A DNA stretch of 64,000 nt from Eubacteriales bacterium. Its GTDB lineage: Bacteria > Bacillota > Clostridia > Oscillospirales > CAG-382. The position numbers and the translations under genes are program-made. This document shows, piece by piece, positions 3,605-10,689 of the stretch. How positions within the stretch are numbered: the first letter of the stretch is position 1; every line of letters begins with the position of its first letter. The notes under the pieces were generated by a model, which had not been told where the DNA came from, did not search any database, and saw only the letters and a program-made list of their open reading frames with translations. The stretch spans positions 4,214 to 68,213 of the forward strand of contig JAZRTY010000039.1 in assembly GCA_045652245.1 (NCBI GenBank). Reading direction: 5' to 3'.

Positions 3605-4942
3605 TTATTTTTCCTTTTTCTCCATAAAATCAAGGAACAGGCAGTAAAGCACCGAGCAGACCGGAACACCTAAAAGTATACCGAAGAAACCGAACAGATT
3701 TCCTCCGAGCGTTACCGCCGCAATTACAAGAATTCCGGGAAGTCCGATTGATTTACCCATCACCTTTGGGTAGATAAGGTGTGTTTCAAGCTGCTGCAAA
3801 AGCAGAATGAATATAAGGAACCAGACAGCCGACATAACGTCTACCGAAAGTATCAGAATTATACCGATACAGGTACCGAGGAAGGCACCGAAAATCGGGA
3901 TAATGGCAGTAACTCCGACAAGCACCGATATTACCAGAGCATACGGAAGTCTGAAAACAGACATTCCGATAAAGCACAGGCATCCGAGCACAAGCGCCTC
4001 GGTCAGCTGACCTGCAAGGAATTTTGTAAAGGTGTTTTTTGTAAGGATTGATACGCCAAGTACCCTGTCGGCAGTCTTCTTTTCAAAGATAACAAATAAC
4101 AGCTTCTTTGCAGCTGCACTTATTCTTTCCTTTTGTACAAGTGAGTAAATCGAAAATACAAAAGCAAGCACAACATTGAATACCGCACCGAAAACAGAGC
4201 TTGTTATGTTAAAGGTAGTATCAACAAACAGCGCCCATTTGTCCTTTACAACGTCGGTCACCGTCTTTACGATTTTTTCTGCATTAAGATCAAGCTCAGG
4301 AACCGAGATGTTATACCCCTCAAGGAACTTTGCAAGATTGGTTGTCCAGCCTTCAAGGTTTTTGATAAATGCAGGGAACTTGTCAATAAAGGTCTTTATC
4401 GCATTTTCCAGTTCGGGTATTACCATAAAGATAATCGCAAAAACAATTCCTAATAGAATTATTACCGACAGGACAAGACAAACTGCCCTTTTCAGGATTT
4501 TCTGATTTATCTTAAAGCGTGAAAACTTTTTTGAAAACGCCGCAAGCTTCTTGTTTTTATCTGCTTTTTTTGAAAGCTTATCCCAGAGCCTCTCAAGCGG
4601 GGACAAAATCATATTAAGTATGAAGGCAATTGCAAAACCGATTATAAAGGGAGAGAAAATCGAAAGAAGCTTATCTATGCCACGGCCTATCTGCGACATA
4701 TGGTTAATTCCCCAATATAGAAGAATTGCAAAGGAAACGATAATCAGAATACTTCTCAGATTAAAGCTTCCGATGTTTTTGCGAAGTTCTTTTTTATAGA
4801 CGTCCGGAGATATTTGTGCAGGGCGTTTTTCGTTTTTATCGGACTCAGCTTTTATTTCTGTTTCATTTTTTGTATTATTTAAAGCCTGTACTTCTTTTTC
4901 GTCGGTATTCTGTGGTTTTGTTGTTTTCTTTTTCATTCTCAC
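3605..4942 (-). CDS. AI-2E (PerM/TqsA) family transporter
   Basis: Multi-TM protein with IPIFGAFLG, QQLETHLIYPKVMG and GFFGILLGVP motifs. Confidence 0.9.
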   Translation of the reverse strand: MRMKKKTTKPQNTDEKEVQALNNTKNETEIKAESDKNEKRPAQISPDVYKKELRKNIGSFNLRSILIIVSFAILLYWGINHMSQIGRGIDKLLSIFSPFIIGFAIAFILNMILSPLERLWDKLSKKADKNKKLAAFSKKFSRFKINQKILKRAVCLVLSVIILLGIVFAIIFMVIPELENAIKTFIDKFPAFIKNLEGWTTNLAKFLEGYNISVPELDLNAEKIVKTVTDVVKDKWALFVDTTFNITSSVFGAVFNVVLAFVFSIYSLVQKERISAAAKKLLFVIFEKKTADRVLGVSILTKNTFTKFLAGQLTEALVLGCLCFIGMSVFRLPYALVISVLVGVTAIIPIFGAFLGTCIGIILILSVDVMSAVWFLIFILLLQQLETHLIYPKVMGKSIGLPGILVIAAVTLGGNLFGFFGILLGVPVCSVLYCLFLDFMEKKEK

Positions 4943-4965: not shown

Positions 4966-6246
4966 TTAGTTTTCGCTATTTTCCGGATTTTCCTCCTCGG
5001 TCACCTTCGGCTTTATAAGCACCGACACCGAGAGGATTCTTTGCTCCTCTGTCTGACTTATTGTAATAACTAAATTCTCGTATTCAAAGCTCTCACCCGT
5101 AACCGGTATTCTTTCCATTTTTTCCATAATCCAGCCACCGAGAGAAACGCTGTCTGTTTCAACCTTTTCAAGGCAGAAGAATTCGCAGAAGTCATCAAAA
5201 TTCACGGCACAGTCGACCTTATAGGTATCCTCCGAAATTTTGGTAAATTCCTCGACAACCTCGTCGTGCTCGTCCCAGATTTCGCCGACAAGCTCCTCTA
5301 AAATGTCCTCCATGGTTACGATTCCGAGAGTTCCGCCGTACTCGTCAAGCACTATTGCAAGATGGGTTTTGTTTTTTTGAAGAAGCTTTAACAGGTCATT
5401 GATTTTTTCCGACTGATGCACAAAAAGAGGTGGAACAATAAGCTCTTTTAGGTGCTTTCCGGTAATACCACTTCCGGAATAAAAATCCTTTCTGTGGATT
5501 GTTCCGATAATATTGTCGATAGTATCATCATAAACCAAAAGTCTTGAATAGCCCGACTCGGTAAAGACTCTGGCGATATCCTCCTTTGTACAGTTCTGTT
5601 CAACTGCCTCAAGGTCAACTCTGTGAGTGAGAATATCCTCTGCTTTTCTGTCATTGAATTCTATTGCGTTTTTCAGAAGATCCCCTTCGTCTTCCTCAAG
5701 GCTTCCCTCCTGCTGTACCTCGTCAACAAGCATCAAGAGCTCCTCTGAGGACATTTTACTGTCGTTTTCGGTTTTAACAAGGTTTGCTGAAAGCTTCTTT
5801 ATTCCCGAAAAGATGAAGGTTACGGGAGTAAGAATTATAATTACTACCGAAATAATAGGAGCCGAAAAGCAAGCGAATTTTTCCGGGAAATCGGTTGCAA
5901 GGCTCTTGGGGATAATTTCTCCGAAAACGAGTATAACAACTGTCAGCACAATTATTGAAAGAACAGCAGCCTTAACCGGGGCTTCATTTTCAAGAAGCCG
6001 TGCAAAAAGAAGAGTGCCGATTGATGCGACAATTACATTAAGCACGTTGTTGCCCACAAGAATTGTGAGAATTAATTTATCATATTTTTCCGTAAGCTTC
6101 ACAACAAGGGCTGCTTTTTTGTTTTCTTTTTCTGCCATTGTCCTGATTCTTGCCCTGTTATAGGAAAGGAAGGCAGTTTCGGTTGCGGAAAAATATGCCG
6201 AAAGTACAAGACAAACAAGTATTATCAATATATAAGGTAAGTACAT
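4966..6246 (-). CDS. HlyC/CorC (CNNM/DUF21-CBS-CorC) family transporter, putative Mg2+ efflux
   Basis: [28 protein letters not shown] and [28 protein letters not shown] motifs. Confidence 0.93.
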
Positions 6247-6336
6247 TTTCTTCTCCGTTCCGTTCGCCGCTTTTTCTTACGACGATACAAATATTTCGTG
6301 AAATTTATAGGTTTTCTGTCGGATTTTCCCGAAATA

Positions 6337-6468
6337 TCAACTCAAAAAGCAGAAAATATGCAAAAAGACATACCTGCGCCACAAAATGCGGCGAAGATAT
6401 GTCATATATATTTGTTTATTGAACGAATTACAGGTAGTGTTGTCCTCATCGCTACTATCGCTGTCCAT
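6337..6468 (-). CDS. Putative acidic leader peptide (uORF, 43 aa) MDSDSSDEDNTTCNSFNKQIYMTYLRRILWRRYVFLHIFCFLS
   Basis: GGAGG at 6485-6481, 12 nt before the ATG at 6468; lies between the promoter and the CorC-family gene and runs through a terminator hairpin. Confidence 0.55.
   Translation of the reverse strand: MDSDSSDEDNTTCNSFNKQIYMTYLRRILWRRYVFLHIFCFLS
6362..6403 (-). terminator. Attenuator terminator in the leader of the CorC-family gene
   Basis: Minus strand GACATATCT-T-CGCCGC-ATTTT-GTGGCG-C-AGGTATGTC followed by TTTTT. Confidence 0.7.
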
Positions 6469-6538
6469 CAGTGATATTGTCCTCCGAAGCTAAAAATTTA
6501 TTGTAAAAAAACAGAATAATTCTGTATTCCTTTAGTGA

Positions 6539-6567
6539 ATTATATCAAAATGCCCAATAAAAGTCAA
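6539..6567 (-). promoter_or_regulatory. Sigma-A promoter for the CorC/AI-2E unit
   Basis: Minus strand TTGACT-17bp-TATAAT. Confidence 0.75.
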
Positions 6568-6755
6568 GGCTTGTACTTTCTCTTTAATGATGTGTTCACA
6601 AAAGGTTTACATTCACGACATTCAGACAGGCTTTGAATTTCGGCAAAAGGAAAGGCGTCTTTTTTTATTGCCGTGTGCATAGAGATATATATGTAAATAT
6701 ATACTCGTGTACAAGAATATATGCAAAACACTAAAAAGCAAAAAGGGGAAAACAG

Positions 6756-8297
6756 ATGTCGGAAAGCCGTGGCAGAACAAGAACAGCAGCTTCGAGTAAA
6801 AATTTCCGTGCAGCACTGCTCGGACAGCTTCTTACAACAAGTGTGAATTTTATTTCAAGAAGAATTTTTATAAGAGCCCTCGGCAGTGAATTTATGGGGC
6901 TTTCGGGCTTGTGTGGGCATCTGCTGTCTTTTCTGTCGCTTATAGAGCCGGGCTTTGATGCTGCCTGTGCTTTTTATCTTTACAGCCCTCTTGCACAGGG
7001 AAACAGAATTCTCACAAGCCAGATTATGTGCTACCTTAAAAAAATATATCGTCGCTGCTCACTTCTTGCCGTTCTTGTGGGACTTTTTATGATACCGGCT
7101 TTACACAGTCTTTCGGGAGAGGGACTTGACAGGGGCTATGTCACGGTCGTCTGGCTTTTGTATCTTTTTGACCTCTCGCTTTCCTTTCGGATATCCTACA
7201 GAAAAGTTCTTCCTGTATCCGACCAGAGGGCATATATTGTAACTACAAACAGCTACATATTTTTCGTAACAGGTACGATTGCAAGAATTTTATCCCTGCG
7301 TTTTTCCGGAGCCTTTATTCCGTTTCTTGTGACCGGGATAGCAACAGGTCTTATTGAGGAGCTGTTTTTGTATTTCAGAATCGGCAAAAATTATCCTTAT
7401 ATTGAGAATGAGCCTTGTCCCATTTCAAAGGAGGATAAGGAGGGTATTAAATATCAGGTAAAATCCTTGTTTTTCCATAAGCTGGGTGCTGTAGCACAGG
7501 GGTCTGTGGATAATATGTCGATTTTTGCGTATCTCGGCCTTTCCTCGGGGGCGATTTACTCGAATTACACAATGCTTTCGGGGATTTGTCTGTCGCTTGT
7601 TTCGGTTATGACAGGCTCAATAGGTGCAAGTGTCGGAAATCTCGGGGTACAGAGGGATAAAAGAAGAATGGAAAGAGTTTTTGCAAATACCTTTTTTGCA
7701 GTTTTTCTCGTAGGGGGTATTCTTGCAATTTCGCTTTTTTTCATTTATCCGTCGGTAATTTTGCTGTGGCTGGGAGAGGGGTATGTGCTTGGAAGCCTTG
7801 AAAGTGCTTTTTTCTGCATAAATCTGTTTATTTTTTCGCTTCGCCGAATTATAGGAGTCTTTCTTGACGGCTGTGGTCTGTTTGACAAAGAAAAATATAA
7901 GGCTCTGATAGAAGCGTTCCTGTGCGCAGTTATGACTCTTTACCTTGTTCCGAAAATTGGAATCTGCGGTGCGATTTTCGGCCAGATTTTTGCAAGTATT
8001 TCATTTTCGCTGTGGTTTGAGCCGTATATTTTATATAAGTATGGCTTTAAAATGAAGATTTTTCCCTTTTTAAAGGATAATTCAAAGTATCTGACAGCGC
8101 TTGTTCTCTCGTTTTTTCTGTCGGGAATCCTTTGCAATTTCCTCAAAGGCGTAAGTGTGACGGCAATTATTCTGAAAATTGTGTTCTGTACCCTTTCTAC
8201 CCTTTCGGTTTTTGCAATGCTCTTTTTTGATACACCCGTGTTTAAAGCCTTTCTGCACTATTTTCGTGCAGTACTTTCCGGAAAAGGCATTTCTTGA
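6756..8297 (+). CDS. Oligosaccharide flippase (Wzx/MOP superfamily) membrane protein
   Basis: Highly hydrophobic; RxxFxxxLGxExxGL start, YLYSPLA, DQRAYI and SIGASVGNL motifs typical of clostridial flippases. Confidence 0.75.
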   Translation: MSESRGRTRTAASSKNFRAALLGQLLTTSVNFISRRIFIRALGSEFMGLSGLCGHLLSFLSLIEPGFDAACAFYLYSPLAQGNRILTSQIMCYLKKIYRRCSLLAVLVGLFMIPALHSLSGEGLDRGYVTVVWLLYLFDLSLSFRISYRKVLPVSDQRAYIVTTNSYIFFVTGTIARILSLRFSGAFIPFLVTGIATGLIEELFLYFRIGKNYPYIENEPCPISKEDKEGIKYQVKSLFFHKLGAVAQGSVDNMSIFAYLGLSSGAIYSNYTMLSGICLSLVSVMTGSIGASVGNLGVQRDKRRMERVFANTFFAVFLVGGILAISLFFIYPSVILLWLGEGYVLGSLESAFFCINLFIFSLRRIIGVFLDGCGLFDKEKYKALIEAFLCAVMTLYLVPKIGICGAIFGQIFASISFSLWFEPYILYKYGFKMKIFPFLKDNSKYLTALVLSFFLSGILCNFLKGVSVTAIILKIVFCTLSTLSVFAMLFFDTPVFKAFLHYFRAVLSGKGIS

Positions 8298-8343: not shown

Positions 8344-10689
8344 TTATTTCACCTTAACAAGCACGCAGGACATATCGTCGTCGTGAGTTGAAGCGGACAC
8401 GGCAAGGTCGAGAATTTTAGATGCAACTGTCTCACAGGAGGCGCCTGCGTTTTCCGACATAACACGGCAAAGCGAAGTTCCACAATCAATAGACGAGCTT
8501 ATTCCGTCGGACAGCATTATGATTGTATCCCCCGAGAAAACATCAAAGGAGGTATTTTCTGCCGAAAAGCCCTCAATGATCCCACAGGGTGGTGTATCCG
8601 AGGAAACCTTGAAAAGTTTGGCACTCCTCATAAGGTAGGCAGGGGCGGCACCTGCTTTAATAAAGGAAGCCTTTTTTGAAAGCAGGTCAAGCTCAAGCAG
8701 GTCTACACTTGAAAAGCATTCCTTGTTTTTTGACATTAAGAGACTATTCAGCAGCTCTATTGTAACTCCTTTTCCTGCACCGCCGCAAAGGAGCTTTTCA
8801 ATAAATACCGATGTAATTTTCGAGGTCATCGCAGCATCCCTGCCGCTGCCCATTCCGTCGGCAATAAGAGCATAAAAGAAACTGTCGTCACTTTTGAAAA
8901 AGGATATTGTATCGCCGCTTATAACCTCGCCGCTTTTTGTGTGCGAGGCTTTTACATATTCAACCGTTATTACCTCTTTTGAGACGAAACGGATGGTAAA
9001 GGTTCCGTTTTCTTCAAAGATAAATTCGGGAATGGCAAAAATTACGCCACATTCTGAGCTATAGTAGGCTGCCATATTCTCTGACGGCTTTGTGACTGAG
9101 GAAACCGGGACTCCACAGATATCAAAAGTTTTCTTTCTGGTACCGTAGACGCTGACGCTTTTAAAGGGCAGTCCGAGCTTCTTTGTGGCTGAATACGCAA
9201 GATTTGTCATCTTCCTGTCGAAGGTTGTGTCCTCGCCCGAAAGGCGAGAGGTATATTTCAGAATTTTTGCAACCGTACTGTACTCACGGGCAAGGATTTC
9301 GGTTTTATTGTTACGGAATCTGTCGGAAAGAGTTTTTCTGTATTCTCCGTTTATCCCCTCGCAGATGGCGTTCGGGTGTCGGCACAGGCTTTTGAGCTTT
9401 TCGGGAAGTGCGGCGCTTGTGAGCTTTCCCGACAGAAGCTTTGATGTGATTTCGTGCCCTGAATACAGGTGCTTGAGCTTGCACATTTTGGATACCTCGC
9501 ACGTACTGCAATGCTTTGCGCTCACAACAGAGCAGATTACCGTCGCCTCCTCCTGTGTTACAAATTTCATTCTACCCGAATAGCCATAACAGAGCTTTGA
9601 AACCGAATTAAAAGCACCCGACAGCGAGGAGATTCTCCTGGTGTATGCTTCCCCGACCACCTCTGCGCTTTTTGGAGTATCAAGGCTTGCCTGTGATTGG
9701 TGCTTACGGATGTAACAGGCAACCGGAAGAAAAAGGAGAGAGGAAAGAAGAACGGCGCCGATTGTCGAATAACCGATTACCGGCAGATTGCAGGTAAAAA
9801 GCATAAGAGCCGAACAGGTAAGTGAAAAACCTATGTGTGCAAAAGGGATATTTCTTGAAAAAAGCCGGATATACACGAATGCAGCAACGCACAAGGGGGC
9901 ACAAAAGGAGTATTGCAGCGTTGCAAAGCCTAAAATGACACAGGATAAAAGCGCAAAGCCCTCGTCAAAGCACAGGGAAAAGAAAAGTGCCGTAAGGCAA
10001 GCAAAAAGCACCGAGCCGAAAAGTCCGGGCAGTACAAAATTCAGCGACATTGTAAGACACGCACAAAAGAACAACACAGATACCTTTGAAAGCTTGGTAT
10101 AACAGATTGTGGGATAGAGAAGATAAGAACAGACCGGCAGAGTTATAATATAGGAAATGCCACGCAAGAGGGTGTCGGAGGAAAGAGAACTCTTCCCTGC
10201 AAGAGTTCCTTCGCAAAGGAGCGCTCCGAAGATAAAAATGCCTGTAAAACAGGCAAGAACGGTTCGTACATTTTTTGATTCCGAGAAGGTATCCGACAGT
10301 AAAAGCTTCCTTATTATATATATAAGGGTATTTATACCGAAAAAGGCAAAACCGTTTTTATCGTATGTAAGACAGGCTATAGCACTTCCCATATACGAGA
10401 AAAAGGAAAGCTCGCCTGAGGAAATAAGAAGCGAAAGCCCGAGAGGGTATACCCCGAAGCCGAGGTTTGCCTTTCCGAAGACGAAGCCGCAAAGGGCAAG
10501 GGCGATACATCTGATTGCAAGGTATGCAAAGGAAAGATTTTTTTCCGAAAAGAGAACTTTCACAAGTCTTGAACGGGTAATGGCGACAAAGGCGTTTGAA
10601 ATCTGCGATTTCAGCTTTCTTTTTGCTGTACTTAGCCCGGTTTTTATTCTTTCTGTATATGAGCGTTCGGTTTTTTCTGTCTTATTCAT
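8344..10689 (-). CDS. spoIIE: Stage II sporulation protein E (membrane PP2C phosphatase)
   Basis: N-terminal TM region, CxxC..C regulatory segment, C-terminal PP2C motifs SGD, ADGMGSG, KAGAAP, LSDG and DDMS. Confidence 0.85.
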   Translation of the reverse strand: MNKTEKTERSYTERIKTGLSTAKRKLKSQISNAFVAITRSRLVKVLFSEKNLSFAYLAIRCIALALCGFVFGKANLGFGVYPLGLSLLISSGELSFFSYMGSAIACLTYDKNGFAFFGINTLIYIIRKLLLSDTFSESKNVRTVLACFTGIFIFGALLCEGTLAGKSSLSSDTLLRGISYIITLPVCSYLLYPTICYTKLSKVSVLFFCACLTMSLNFVLPGLFGSVLFACLTALFFSLCFDEGFALLSCVILGFATLQYSFCAPLCVAAFVYIRLFSRNIPFAHIGFSLTCSALMLFTCNLPVIGYSTIGAVLLSSLLFLPVACYIRKHQSQASLDTPKSAEVVGEAYTRRISSLSGAFNSVSKLCYGYSGRMKFVTQEEATVICSVVSAKHCSTCEVSKMCKLKHLYSGHEITSKLLSGKLTSAALPEKLKSLCRHPNAICEGINGEYRKTLSDRFRNNKTEILAREYSTVAKILKYTSRLSGEDTTFDRKMTNLAYSATKKLGLPFKSVSVYGTRKKTFDICGVPVSSVTKPSENMAAYYSSECGVIFAIPEFIFEENGTFTIRFVSKEVITVEYVKASHTKSGEVISGDTISFFKSDDSFFYALIADGMGSGRDAAMTSKITSVFIEKLLCGGAGKGVTIELLNSLLMSKNKECFSSVDLLELDLLSKKASFIKAGAAPAYLMRSAKLFKVSSDTPPCGIIEGFSAENTSFDVFSGDTIIMLSDGISSSIDCGTSLCRVMSENAGASCETVASKILDLAVSASTHDDDMSCVLVKVK

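Follow-up and report, generated by a model that had tools for sequence, protein, structure and literature searches.

Leader ORF and terminator upstream of a CNNM-type gene

The window, that is, the whole stretch of 64,000 nucleotides analysed, carries on its minus strand a gene for a CNNM/CorB-type transporter of 426 aa (4966–6246), with its own Shine-Dalgarno (SD) sequence GGAG at 6256–6253. Its product possesses the DUF21/CNNM transmembrane domain, the CBS pair and the CorC_HlyC domain characteristic of the CNNM/CorB-CorC family (Pfam: CNNM 3.6e-48, CBS 7.9e-16, CorC_HlyC 1e-14). Among solved structures the nearest is 7m1t (E 1.5e-56), which was deposited under the name 'Hemolysin, contains CBS domains', and the NCBIfam models GldE, PaeA and CorC all match below their cut-offs. 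CNNM/CorC proteins are described in the literature as Mg2+ exporters, in line with the earlier note; the protein of the window may export Mg2+ as well.

The series of elements that the earlier note had read from this locus (promoter, GGAGG, leader ORF, terminator and CNNM/CorC gene) was recovered in full, at the same positions. All lie on the minus strand. The sigma-70-type promoter TTGACT-17 nt-TATAAT (6539–6567) has 11 of 12 matches and a TG before its -10 box (extended -10), and is the top-scoring one in the 3-kb region scanned; pairs equivalent to it, TTGACA/TATAAT, can be seen before the leaders of relatives (L002–L009). Transcription is predicted to start near 6532. Directly after this predicted start there is a weak hairpin with a U7 tract (6531–6504, −6.1 kcal/mol), not conserved in relatives.

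The SD sequence GGAGG (6481–6485) precedes by 12 nt the ATG of a short upstream ORF (uORF) of 43 codons plus stop (6337–6468; MDSDSSDEDNTTCNSFNKQIYMTYLRRILWRRYVFLHIFCFLS). The peptide starts with MDSDSSDEDNTTCNSF, i.e. MDSDSSDED, and five of its first nine residues are D or E, exactly the acidic start remarked on before. Codons 2–9 (DSDSSDED, 6442–6465) make up a conserved run of Asp/Glu and small residues, which we propose as the sensing part.

The terminator hairpin takes up 37 nt (6367–6403): 9 bp, a 1x1 mismatch, 7 bp and a 3-nt loop. It folds with a free energy of −23.3 kcal/mol (z −5.4), matched by none of 200 shuffled sequences, and is followed by the U-run UUUUU (6362–6366) and then GCAU. 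A simple terminator scan missed it because the stem is interrupted; folding reveals it. The U-run ends before the stop codon of the uORF at 6339–6337, placing the intrinsic terminator inside the uORF as the earlier note had it. No promoter-like site was found by promoter scan between the U-run (6362) and the CorC start (6246), the neighbouring gene upstream is divergent, and no minus-strand gene lies upstream of the leader; the hairpin therefore belongs to the CorC transcription unit. The locus is thus built like a leader-peptide attenuator: a short ORF with SD and start codon close behind the promoter and upstream of the gene, then an intrinsic terminator before the structural gene, with no promoter after it.

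Conservation and coding pattern of the leader

Alignment of the leaders of CorC orthologues, the check that the earlier note had proposed, gave a clearly positive answer on the conservation of the MD-acidic uORF and its terminator. Our search rule comprised an SD sequence, a start codon with a D/E codon directly behind it, a hairpin with T-run beginning 35–85 nt from the start, and a uORF that stops at most 10 nt short of the hairpin. Anchored on the CorC protein, the rule was passed by the upstream regions of 54 of 104 orthologues from the same order (2 of the 54 are doubtful), against 0–2 of 104 in ten dinucleotide shuffles; the arrangement is therefore not due to chance. About half of the CorC orthologues examined are without the device, and it is also present in other orders of the class Clostridia.

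Two further anchors were used. The terminator sequence alone, searched in the genomes of all species, gave 33 matches, 21 of them from clostridial MAG records: an M-D/E uORF is present in 21/21 of these versus 0/12 of the others, and in all 21 the next gene downstream is a CNNM gene. The N-terminal codons alone, searched in metagenomes, gave 44 matches; 32 have CorC downstream, 31 of those with a terminator. Three independent anchors (CorC protein, terminator, N-terminal codons) thus find the same device. In the genome of the window itself (1.94 Mb, both strands) a relaxed rule matches 24 times, and only the CorC leader has at least four D/E in residues 2–10, all others having at most three.

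We compared 55 non-redundant leaders. An SD sequence is present in all 55, though this was a selection rule for most. Its distance to the start codon has a median of 13 nt, so that the spacing of 12 nt in the window, already called somewhat long in the earlier note, is long throughout the family. Such long spacing should weaken initiation, which counts against the attenuator proposed below. The start codon is ATG in 46 leaders, GTG in 6 and TTG in 3, with no other; codon 2 is GAC in 42, GAT in 11 and GAA in 2; codon 4 is GAY in 41. Across the 55 aligned leaders, the third codon position is the least conserved. Among 37 leaders found without using the ORF as a criterion, the frame is open from start to hairpin in 37/37, with zero in-frame stops; the other two frames have zero stops in 20/37 and 0/37, respectively, the +2 frame being closed in all 37. 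The pattern of conservation looks like that of coding sequence, an indirect sign that the leader is translated. Codons 5 and 6 are nearly always AGT and AGC rather than any Ser codon, a preference left unexplained by a peptide model. The C-terminal two thirds of the uORF are not conserved, and its length ranges from 11 to 47 aa.

Nor does a peptide model explain that the lower stem of the terminator (GGCATATCTG/CAGGTATGCC) is kept regardless of the reading frame: the uORF reads it in frame 2 in 22 leaders, in frame 1 in 3 and in frame 0 in 2, while in 12 the stop precedes the stem. The RNAalifold consensus of 36 leaders contains the terminator helix only, with compensatory changes in 11 of its 13 pairs, and TTTTTG(C/T)G is kept 3' of the hairpin in the same alignment. 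That consensus holds no alternative antiterminator pairing of the trp/his type, selected by ribosome position. By eye, codons 10–13 can form 6–7 pairs with the 3' arm in the window and in same-genus relatives; this antiterminator is not conserved in other clades, is absent from the consensus and was rejected as a conserved feature.

Conservation at the nucleotide level, both of GACAGTAGCGA and of the lower terminator stem whatever the frame, could also be expected if the 5' part of the leader were an RNA element (a riboswitch or a protein-binding site) controlling the terminator, the ORF being incidental. By eye, several leaders allow a weak 5-bp hairpin, ACAGU...ACUGU, and in three leaders of the Pro-rich class described below the SD could pair with CCUCC Pro codons. 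Against such an element, no conserved helix 5' of the terminator emerges when RNAalifold is run on the 36 leaders, and Rfam 15 has no match over 6100–6800 (E up to 10), the best chance-level matches there (CRISPR repeat, mir-297, SL1) having E 0.87–1, far below gathering. Only A, G and T occur at the first base of the start codon, changes in codon 2 are limited to its third base or to Glu, and the open frame together with the closed +2 frame in all 37 leaders points the same way. Moreover, very different nucleotide sequences, encoding DSDSSD, DEDGYPAE or DEPPP, occupy the same place, and lineages that have no terminator retain the uORF, its stop overlapping the CorC start. We consider an RNA element very improbable.

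Position of the uORF stop and proposed mechanism

The distance from start codon to hairpin is 41–75 nt, with a median of 59 (n = 52). In these 52 leaders the uORF stop codon falls downstream of the hairpin in 30 cases and within it in 15; in the other 7 it precedes the hairpin by no more than 8 nt. In every case, therefore, a ribosome finishing the uORF would cover the 5' arm. Five leaders (L201, L202, L205, L010 and L114) have no terminator, and their uORF stop overlaps the start of CorC (ATGA, TAATG or TGATG). L008 and L097 have both a terminator and a stop/start overlap. In both layouts completed translation of the uORF should switch CorC on. The direction put forward in the earlier note, in which the exporter is made when the uORF is translated to its end, draws support from this stop geometry and from the exchange of terminator for overlap; Mg2+ as the signal is a further step, suggested by the composition of the peptide and the family of the transporter.

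The unit combines a strong promoter and an SD with an ORF and a strong terminator. Formally, this is all that a small gene requires, and the uORF might be an independent small-protein gene or its roughly 170-nt terminated transcript an sRNA, CorC being expressed separately. Such independence sits badly with the gap between terminator and CorC, which is devoid of promoter-like sites in the window and shrinks to about 30 nt in relatives, and with a peptide unconserved over its C-terminal two thirds, variable in length and ending before, inside or after the hairpin. The unit is, in addition, always linked to a CNNM gene. Of the explanations weighed here we give this one the least credence, and very little of it.

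The composition of the N-terminus suggests what the uORF could sense. N-termini of Asp/Glu/Pro and small residues are described as causing ribosome destabilisation in E. coli, enhanced by low Mg2+, and acidic residues adjacent or one apart early in the chain as causing pausing or drop-off; the earlier note's account of this effect agrees with these descriptions, in which MgtL acts as a Mg2+ sensor. The demonstrations found in the literature come from E. coli and eukaryotes, none of them from Clostridia. The destabilising composition, as published, is more than three D/E/P per 10 residues at the very N-terminus, with small rather than bulky neighbours; translation of such peptides is described as aborting on the motif with release of peptidyl-tRNA, and as doing so more at low Mg2+ or without bL31. 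Residues 2–11 of the 55 leaders have medians of 5 D/E/P, 4 small and 1 bulky residue, and 47 leaders exceed three D/E/P. The leader of the window, with five D/E in residues 2–10, has the composition expected for intrinsic ribosome destabilisation. The remaining 8 leaders have only 2–3 D/E/P (e.g. MDSCGDAGRP and MDGDSSGGKR). A second class, MD(E/Q/I)PP(P/L), is Pro-rich and comprises 6 of the 55. Behind the acidic run, Cys residues are common (21 within residues 2–11 of the 55 leaders), a separate observation that brings to mind a metal-binding nascent chain.

We propose that the leader is a ribosome-mediated attenuator of transcription in which translation of the first ~10 codons acts as the sensor, turned ON by high Mg2+ or other cations, a reading to which we give somewhat better than even chances. 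Transcription would start at the strong promoter and, by default, the leader RNA would fold into the intrinsic terminator, ending about 115 nt short of the CorC/CNNM gene. A ribosome initiating on the uORF would have to clear the N-terminal run of Asp/Glu and small residues (Pro-rich in some lineages), where ribosomes with a very short nascent chain would pause or drop off, the more so when ribosome-stabilising cations are low. A ribosome that clears the run and trails RNA polymerase would occupy the 5' arm of the hairpin and block it, leading to read-through into the exporter gene. Where free Mg2+ is high, or total Mg2+ plus polyamines, the uORF would thus be translated in full and the exporter turned ON; low Mg2+ would lead to abortive translation, termination and the exporter OFF.

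In Bacillus subtilis, RNA polymerase outruns the ribosome. A race in which the ribosome blocks the hairpin would therefore need a pause of the polymerase, which counts against the model. In the 5' arm, GGCATATCTGCG fits G-10/Y-1/G+1, the polymerase pause consensus as published, in several relatives, a fit not separable from plain homology among them; the corresponding GACATATCTTCG of the window does not fit. Compared by eye, the hairpin loops of the leaders show no conserved TTNTTT (NusG-type) motif.

The same architecture, a uORF overriding a terminator, could answer to a signal other than Mg2+. It might respond to polyamines or to the total load of cations, to how far tRNA-Asp or tRNA-Ser is charged, to an antibiotic that targets the ribosome, or to how active a rescue factor is, this factor being either an EttA-like ABCF protein reporting ATP/ADP or, for the Pro-rich leaders, EF-P. 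Codons 4–7 use only two or three tRNA species (GAY, AGY). The MD(E/Q/I)PP(P/L) class may depend on EF-P through its poly-proline run. EF-P is reported to enhance translation of polyproline-containing proteins, and the published effect of Mg2+ on MgtL also acts via proline codons. EttA is described as relieving pausing or drop-off at early acidic residues, MgtL included. PaeA, described as a polyamine exporter, is of the same protein family and matches the protein of the window at 1e-45, below the cut-off. The Firmicutes devices of leader peptide plus terminator found in the literature (tlrB, vmlR) are, as described, antibiotic sensors.

The device, however, is tied only to CNNM genes (21/21, and in the genome of the window the CorC gene only), whereas a sensor of antibiotics or amino acids would be expected before resistance or biosynthesis genes. 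Attenuation of the starvation type needs an antiterminator, and none is conserved in the 36 leaders submitted to RNAalifold. Since Mg2+ and polyamines both stabilise ribosomes, a different signal would overlap with the attenuator proposed above rather than exclude it. Altogether we find a signal other than Mg2+ unlikely, with a chance that still deserves attention. A link to queuosine tRNA, considered for the frequent D, N, Y and H of the leaders, was dropped, as it has no connection to CNNM function.

Relation to known systems and meaning for Mg2+ homeostasis

The leader of pyrBI in E. coli extends through an intrinsic attenuator, and a ribosome close behind the polymerase prevents the hairpin; no antiterminator hairpin is needed, and the variable is polymerase speed, set by UTP-sensitive pausing. 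The leader of the window resembles this type more than the trp type, with the ribosome itself as the obstacle to the hairpin. Unlike in pyrBI, its variable would be how far the ribosome gets through a difficult N-terminal sequence.

MgtL, the leader peptide of mgtA in E. coli and Salmonella, is as described likewise short, with an N-terminal acidic/proline motif (EPDP); its ribosome falls off more easily when Mg2+ is low, and how its translation turns out determines whether transcription goes on into a Mg2+ transporter gene. According to the same descriptions, MgtL controls an importer, ON at low Mg2+, via alternative RNA structures and a Rho-dependent terminator. The leader of the window, in contrast, precedes a CNNM gene, of a family described as exporters, has an intrinsic terminator and no conserved alternative RNA structure, and is predicted to follow the inverse logic, being ON when translation succeeds; the comparison implies no sequence homology.

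The product of ybeX (corC) of E. coli belongs to the same protein family, and its N-terminus, MSDDNSHSSDT, shares the composition of Asp and small residues; YbeX is described with CBS and CorC domains only. Its authors report loss of ribosomes after codon 11 and propose that high Mg2+ raises corC expression. There, as described, the motif forms the beginning of the coding sequence (codons 1–11) and affects translation alone. In the leaders described here it lies in a uORF of its own, linked to a terminator or, in certain lineages, to the start codon of CorC, and the N-terminus of the window's CorC (MYLPYILI) has no acidic residue. The idea of corC responding to high Mg2+ has thus been published already and is less new than the earlier note implied, but the device of uORF plus terminator is new: literature searches found no published description of an acidic uORF with terminator before CorC.

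In Salmonella, the YoaL uORF is described as overlapping the upstream region of mgpA (yoaE), whose product is a putative Mg2+ exporter with a CorC domain. When the uORF loses its start codon, less MgpA is translated, and the authors suggest a role at high Mg2+ while calling the mechanism unclear. Compared by description only, this system differs in the TerC-type membrane domain of MgpA and in that no terminator is described for it. The tlrB and vmlR leaders of Firmicutes share a short leader ORF and transcription attenuation, with polymerase pausing giving the ribosome time; they differ, as published, in relying on drug-stalled ribosomes and alternative RNA structures and in preceding resistance genes. 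The M-box (ykoK, RF00380), too, attenuates transcription in response to Mg2+ and is found in Firmicutes before genes for Mg2+ transporters. These are importers, however, and the M-box senses through a structured RNA aptamer that high Mg2+ turns OFF. RF00380 has no match at the leader nor anywhere in the genome of the window (92% complete), an absence with no bearing on the leader itself.

In the same order, an MD(S/G)xS N-terminus is encoded within many CNNM genes that have no leader, and the leader may have originated by copying of this N-terminus. The two platforms for the M-D-x-D/P sensor may be override of an intrinsic terminator and stop/start coupling to the CorC start codon. More broadly, and tentatively, with chances that we put somewhat under even, the ribosome and the very short nascent chain of the M-D-x-D/P leader could together form a modular, protein-free cation sensor, with two output platforms turning CNNM ON at high Mg2+ (or Mg2+ plus polyamines).

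How bacteria sense excess Mg2+ and control their CNNM/CorC exporters is described as unclear in a recent paper, and CNNM proteins are conserved up to humans. Judged from its sequence and conservation, the leader is a strong candidate for a ribosome-based switch that would turn an exporter ON when Mg2+ or cations are plentiful. As a compact conserved device of about 170 nt, it offers an answer that can be put directly to the test, and this for a large group of gut Clostridia, lineages of the human gut among them. If the model is true, it would be the first genetic switch ON at high Mg2+ and the first ribosome-destabilisation sensor outside Enterobacteria, a functional mirror image of both MgtL and the M-box, with one peptide sensor wired to two outputs. 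It would then also provide a simple part for building cation-responsive switches, and ribosome destabilisation by the nascent chain would go from a curiosity of E. coli to a widely used sensing principle.

Architecture of the leader

The leader of the CorC gene opens, on the minus strand, with a TTGACT-17-TATAAT promoter (6567-6539; 11 of 12 consensus matches, with a TG extension) and a GGAGG Shine-Dalgarno (SD) sequence (6485-6481). The ATG of the upstream reading frame (uORF), MDSDSSDEDNTTCNSFNKQIYMTYLRRILWRRYVFLHIFCFLS, follows after a 12-nt spacing (6468), and its 43 codons run to a stop at 6339-6337. Inside the uORF lies a 37-nt hairpin (6403-6367; dG -23.3 kcal/mol, z -5.4), matched in stability by none of 200 shuffles and followed directly 3' by the U-run UUUUU (6366-6362). 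The gene itself (6246-4966, minus) encodes 426 aa that carry the Pfam domains CNNM, CBS and CorC_HlyC; it starts 115 nt beyond the U-run and has its own GGAG, well spaced at 6 nt from its ATG. All the elements named in the earlier note, from the promoter to the acidic uORF with its internal terminator and the CorC gene, were confirmed in place, as was the 12-nt spacing.

The gene on the far side of the leader is divergent, which means that the hairpin does not terminate a gene lying upstream, and a promoter scan found no promoter-like site between the U-run and the CorC start. In a permissive Rfam scan of 6100-6800 the best match reached only E 0.87, and the Mg2+ riboswitch model had no match in the window's genome (92% complete); by the Rfam scan, the leader is no known RNA. 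A weak hairpin with U7 just past the predicted transcription start (6504-6531, minus; -6.1 kcal/mol) showed no conservation among relatives. The divergent ORF (6756-8297, plus; 513 aa) has a sequence suggestive of a multi-pass membrane protein and no match in Pfam or NCBIfam. Further on, at 8344-10689 (minus), lies an ORF whose N-terminal half is long and hydrophobic; it resembles SpoIIE.

Conservation among CNNM genes

The nine best orthologues among 60 relatives (67-55% identity), which span the same genus and other families, all possess, upstream, GGAGG, an acidic uORF that opens with ATG-GAC, and a hairpin with U-run. With CorC as anchor, we searched 401 genomes of the order and took 520 nt upstream of the 80 best new places, giving 104 upstream regions together with 24 loci from relatives (L001-L024). 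They were judged by one rule: the start had to be ATG, GTG or TTG, preceded at 4-20 nt by an SD core and followed by a D/E codon; 35-85 nt past it there had to be the 5' base of a hairpin that folds at -9 kcal/mol or lower and ends at a T-run; and the uORF could stop no earlier than 10 nt ahead of the hairpin. The earlier note called for an alignment of leaders of CorC orthologues to look for an MD-acidic uORF plus terminator, and this arrangement is indeed conserved: 54 of the 104 regions comply (two of them, L104 and L109, doubtful), against 0-2 of 104 in each of ten dinucleotide shuffles of the same regions. The positives come from 14 of the order's family codes and mostly belong to orthologues above ~50% identity.

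The rule accepts GTG- and TTG-start leaders overlooked by an earlier ATG-only screen. It excludes the locus L003 solely through a degenerate T-run, and several negative regions are variants by eye, such as the less acidic MDSSSSPSGDD or a proline class, MD(E/Q/I)PP(P/L). On both strands of the whole 1.94-Mb window genome there are 24 matches, among which the CorC leader is the only one with at least 4 acidic residues at positions 2-10. Beyond the order, 301 genomes of the class were searched; 8 of the 40 best places from other orders comply, seven convincingly, and four further variants are visible by eye (MQSDEDTC, MDSDECD twice and GTG-MKNDSSDD).

Two further anchors do not start from CorC. 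The terminator anchor, TATCTG-N8-34-AGGTATGCCTTTTTG, contains no uORF sequence and found 33 loci in all species genomes. Twenty-one comply with the rule, with peptides starting MD or ME (six identical to those of already collected loci), in records titled Clostridia, Oscillospiraceae, Eubacteriales, Clostridiales or Avoscillospira. The other 12 fail the rule and are from Psychrobacter, Acinetobacter, Bacteroidota and similar, two Ruminococcus and one Roseburia. A CNNM-domain gene is the next ORF in 21/21 positives and in none of the three chance loci having any downstream ORF. The N-terminal codon anchor, GGAG-N6-16-ATGGAYNNNGAYAGTAGCGA, gave 44 loci in a metagenome scan, many of the positive contigs being labelled human gut metagenome. 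CorC matches lie downstream in 32, and 31 of these have a terminator by the rule; among the remaining 12, two are short of downstream sequence and the others have unrelated long ORFs or ambiguous context. By comparative sequence evidence, the arrangement is genuine and conserved, and it is tied specifically to CNNM genes.

Coding constraint and peptide composition

In 55 non-redundant leaders, the start codon is ATG (46), GTG (6) or TTG (3), with no others, and codon 2 is GAC (42), GAT (11) or GAA (2). At codon 4, 41 leaders have GAY. Codon 3 is free to vary, with AGY as well as TCG used where it encodes serine. Averaged over codons 2-12, the information at positions 1, 2 and 3 is 0.57, 0.67 and 0.47, the third being lowest. 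Two of the anchors make no use of ORF length; in the 37 distinct leaders that they supplied, the stretch between the start and a point 10 nt short of the hairpin is stop-free in the uORF frame in all 37, in the +1 frame in 20 and in the +2 frame in none. RNAalifold on 36 of 43 reference leaders (L084 and six of the proline class left out) predicted the terminator helix alone, with compensatory changes at 11 of 13 pairs; its consensus contains no conserved aptamer or antiterminator. Because of the codon pattern, the open frame and this terminator-only consensus, we conclude that the 5' part of the leader is conserved as a putatively translated sequence.

Codons 5-6 (6451-6456) are nearly always AGT then AGC (28 and 21 of 55), and TCN is absent from the commonest codons listed there. 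Such a preference points to a nucleotide-level or tRNA-specific constraint beyond simple serine selection. The lower terminator stem (GGCATATCTG / CAGGTATGCC; 6367-6403 and relatives) is conserved in sequence and the upper stem covaries freely. This lower stem is kept in any uORF reading frame or with the uORF ending ahead of it: 22 leaders read its 3' arm in frame 2, three in frame 1 and two in frame 0, and 12 do not extend that far.

The median make-up of residues 2-11 in the 55 leaders is 5 D/E/P, 1 bulky residue and 4 small ones (G, A, S, T, C), and 47 leaders have more than 3 D/E/P. The C-terminal part is without conservation, and lengths range over 11-47 aa. The SD core lies a median of 13 nt from the start (range 6-16; 6469-6485 in the window), a conserved long spacing that may reflect deliberate tuning of initiation.

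Proline-class leaders (L121, L126, L130, L138-L140, L010, L114, L117, L118, L132), often with GTG or TTG starts, precede more distant CorC orthologues (45-48% identity) and are reminiscent of the proline codons of MgtL. At L121, L126 and L140, the SD AGGAG could pair with CCUCC of the proline codons. Among the CorC ORFs of L011-L024 and L107-L144 (ORF starts chosen by heuristic), many that lack a leader open, ahead of their first membrane helix, with MD(S/G/P)xS, for instance MDSHSIG, MDGDSLQ, MDSDSIGS and MDIDSHS. These N-termini resemble the leader's first residues and the N-terminus of E. coli YbeX; a copy of the 5' end of the CorC gene may have given rise to the leader, or both may share one purpose.

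Proposed sign of regulation, signal and operon

Across 52 leaders, the distance from start codon to hairpin is 41-75 nt (median 59). The uORF stops beyond the hairpin in 30 of them, within it in 15 and no more than 8 nt short of it in the other 7; a ribosome finishing the uORF would therefore always cover the hairpin's 5' arm. One stalled or lost within the first ten codons would fall short of that arm. The E. coli pyrBI leader is a mechanical analogue, the ribosome itself blocking the attenuator. Bacillus subtilis does not couple translation to transcription, and under such uncoupling the attenuator would need a polymerase pause. The 5' arm fits the elemental pause consensus, in its published form G-10/Y-1/G+1, in several relatives but not in the window.

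In some lineages, a uORF of the same kind lacks the terminator, and its stop codon and the start of CorC overlap, as ATGA in L201 and L202, as TAATG in L205 and as TGATG in L010 and L114. At L008 and L097 terminator and overlap are both present. A terminator-independent criterion (SD, start then D/E, at least 4 D/E/P in residues 2-11, 10-75 codons) found 73 uORFs in all 144 upstream regions: 56 with terminator, 8 flagged for terminator and overlap, 3 with overlap only and 6 with neither (2/720 in shuffles). Since both platforms tie CorC expression to completed uORF translation, the sign would be fixed whatever the signal. The proposal that the exporter is made once the uORF has been translated in full is thus well supported by comparative evidence: a putative attenuator with the predicted exporter ON.

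Parts of the preprint of Chadani et al. describe ribosome destabilisation by D/E/P-rich N-terminal segments with small residues, enhanced by low Mg2+ or bL31 loss (10.1101/2021.02.02.429294), so that the low-Mg2+ premise was already in print for E. coli. There, for ybeX (corC), whose product begins MSDDNSHSSDT, ribosome footprints are lost beyond codon 11 and peptidyl-tRNA accumulation is Asp-dependent, and high Mg2+ is suggested to give more ybeX expression and Mg2+ efflux (10.1101/2021.02.02.429294). Passages of a Salmonella CorC/MgpA paper repeat this proposal, call the regulation of corC and mgpA unclear, report both induced at 10 mM Mg2+ and mention the YoaL uORF upstream of mgpA (PMC12421838). 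Excerpts of an EttA paper describe drop-off at the MgtL EPDP motif and pausing at acidic residues, adjacent or one apart, in the first 30 residues (PMC11282234). The destabilisation principle, even its use on CorC, is already published for Enterobacteria. Full-text searches, judged by titles, abstract starts and passages and mostly outside subscription journals, yielded neither a separate uORF coupled to an intrinsic terminator or a CNNM start codon nor such a device in Gram-positive bacteria.

Mg2+ or another cation would be the most plausible signal. Total cation load or polyamines are a realistic alternative. In NCBIfam the protein falls under the cut-offs for CorC and for the polyamine exporter PaeA alike, and its closest solved structure, 7m1t, is deposited as 'Hemolysin, contains CBS domains'.

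The CorC stop is followed after 23 nt by the gene of an AI-2E family transporter (3605-4942, minus; Pfam 8.2e-46, weak YtvI-like NCBIfam match), with no terminator-like site between the two genes in our scan; this gene is probably in the CorC operon, hence under the same leader. A direct-repeat box, TGTAAA-CCTTT-TGTGAA (6595-6611, minus), lies upstream of the -35 hexamer at a distance of about 28 nt and is kept at the same position in the same-genus loci L002-L006 as TGTAAA(C/G)CTTTT(G/A)T(G/T)AA and more loosely in L008. We take it to resemble the sites, likewise direct repeats, of OmpR/WalR-type response regulators; if it is one, the leader's promoter would receive a second, transcriptional input.
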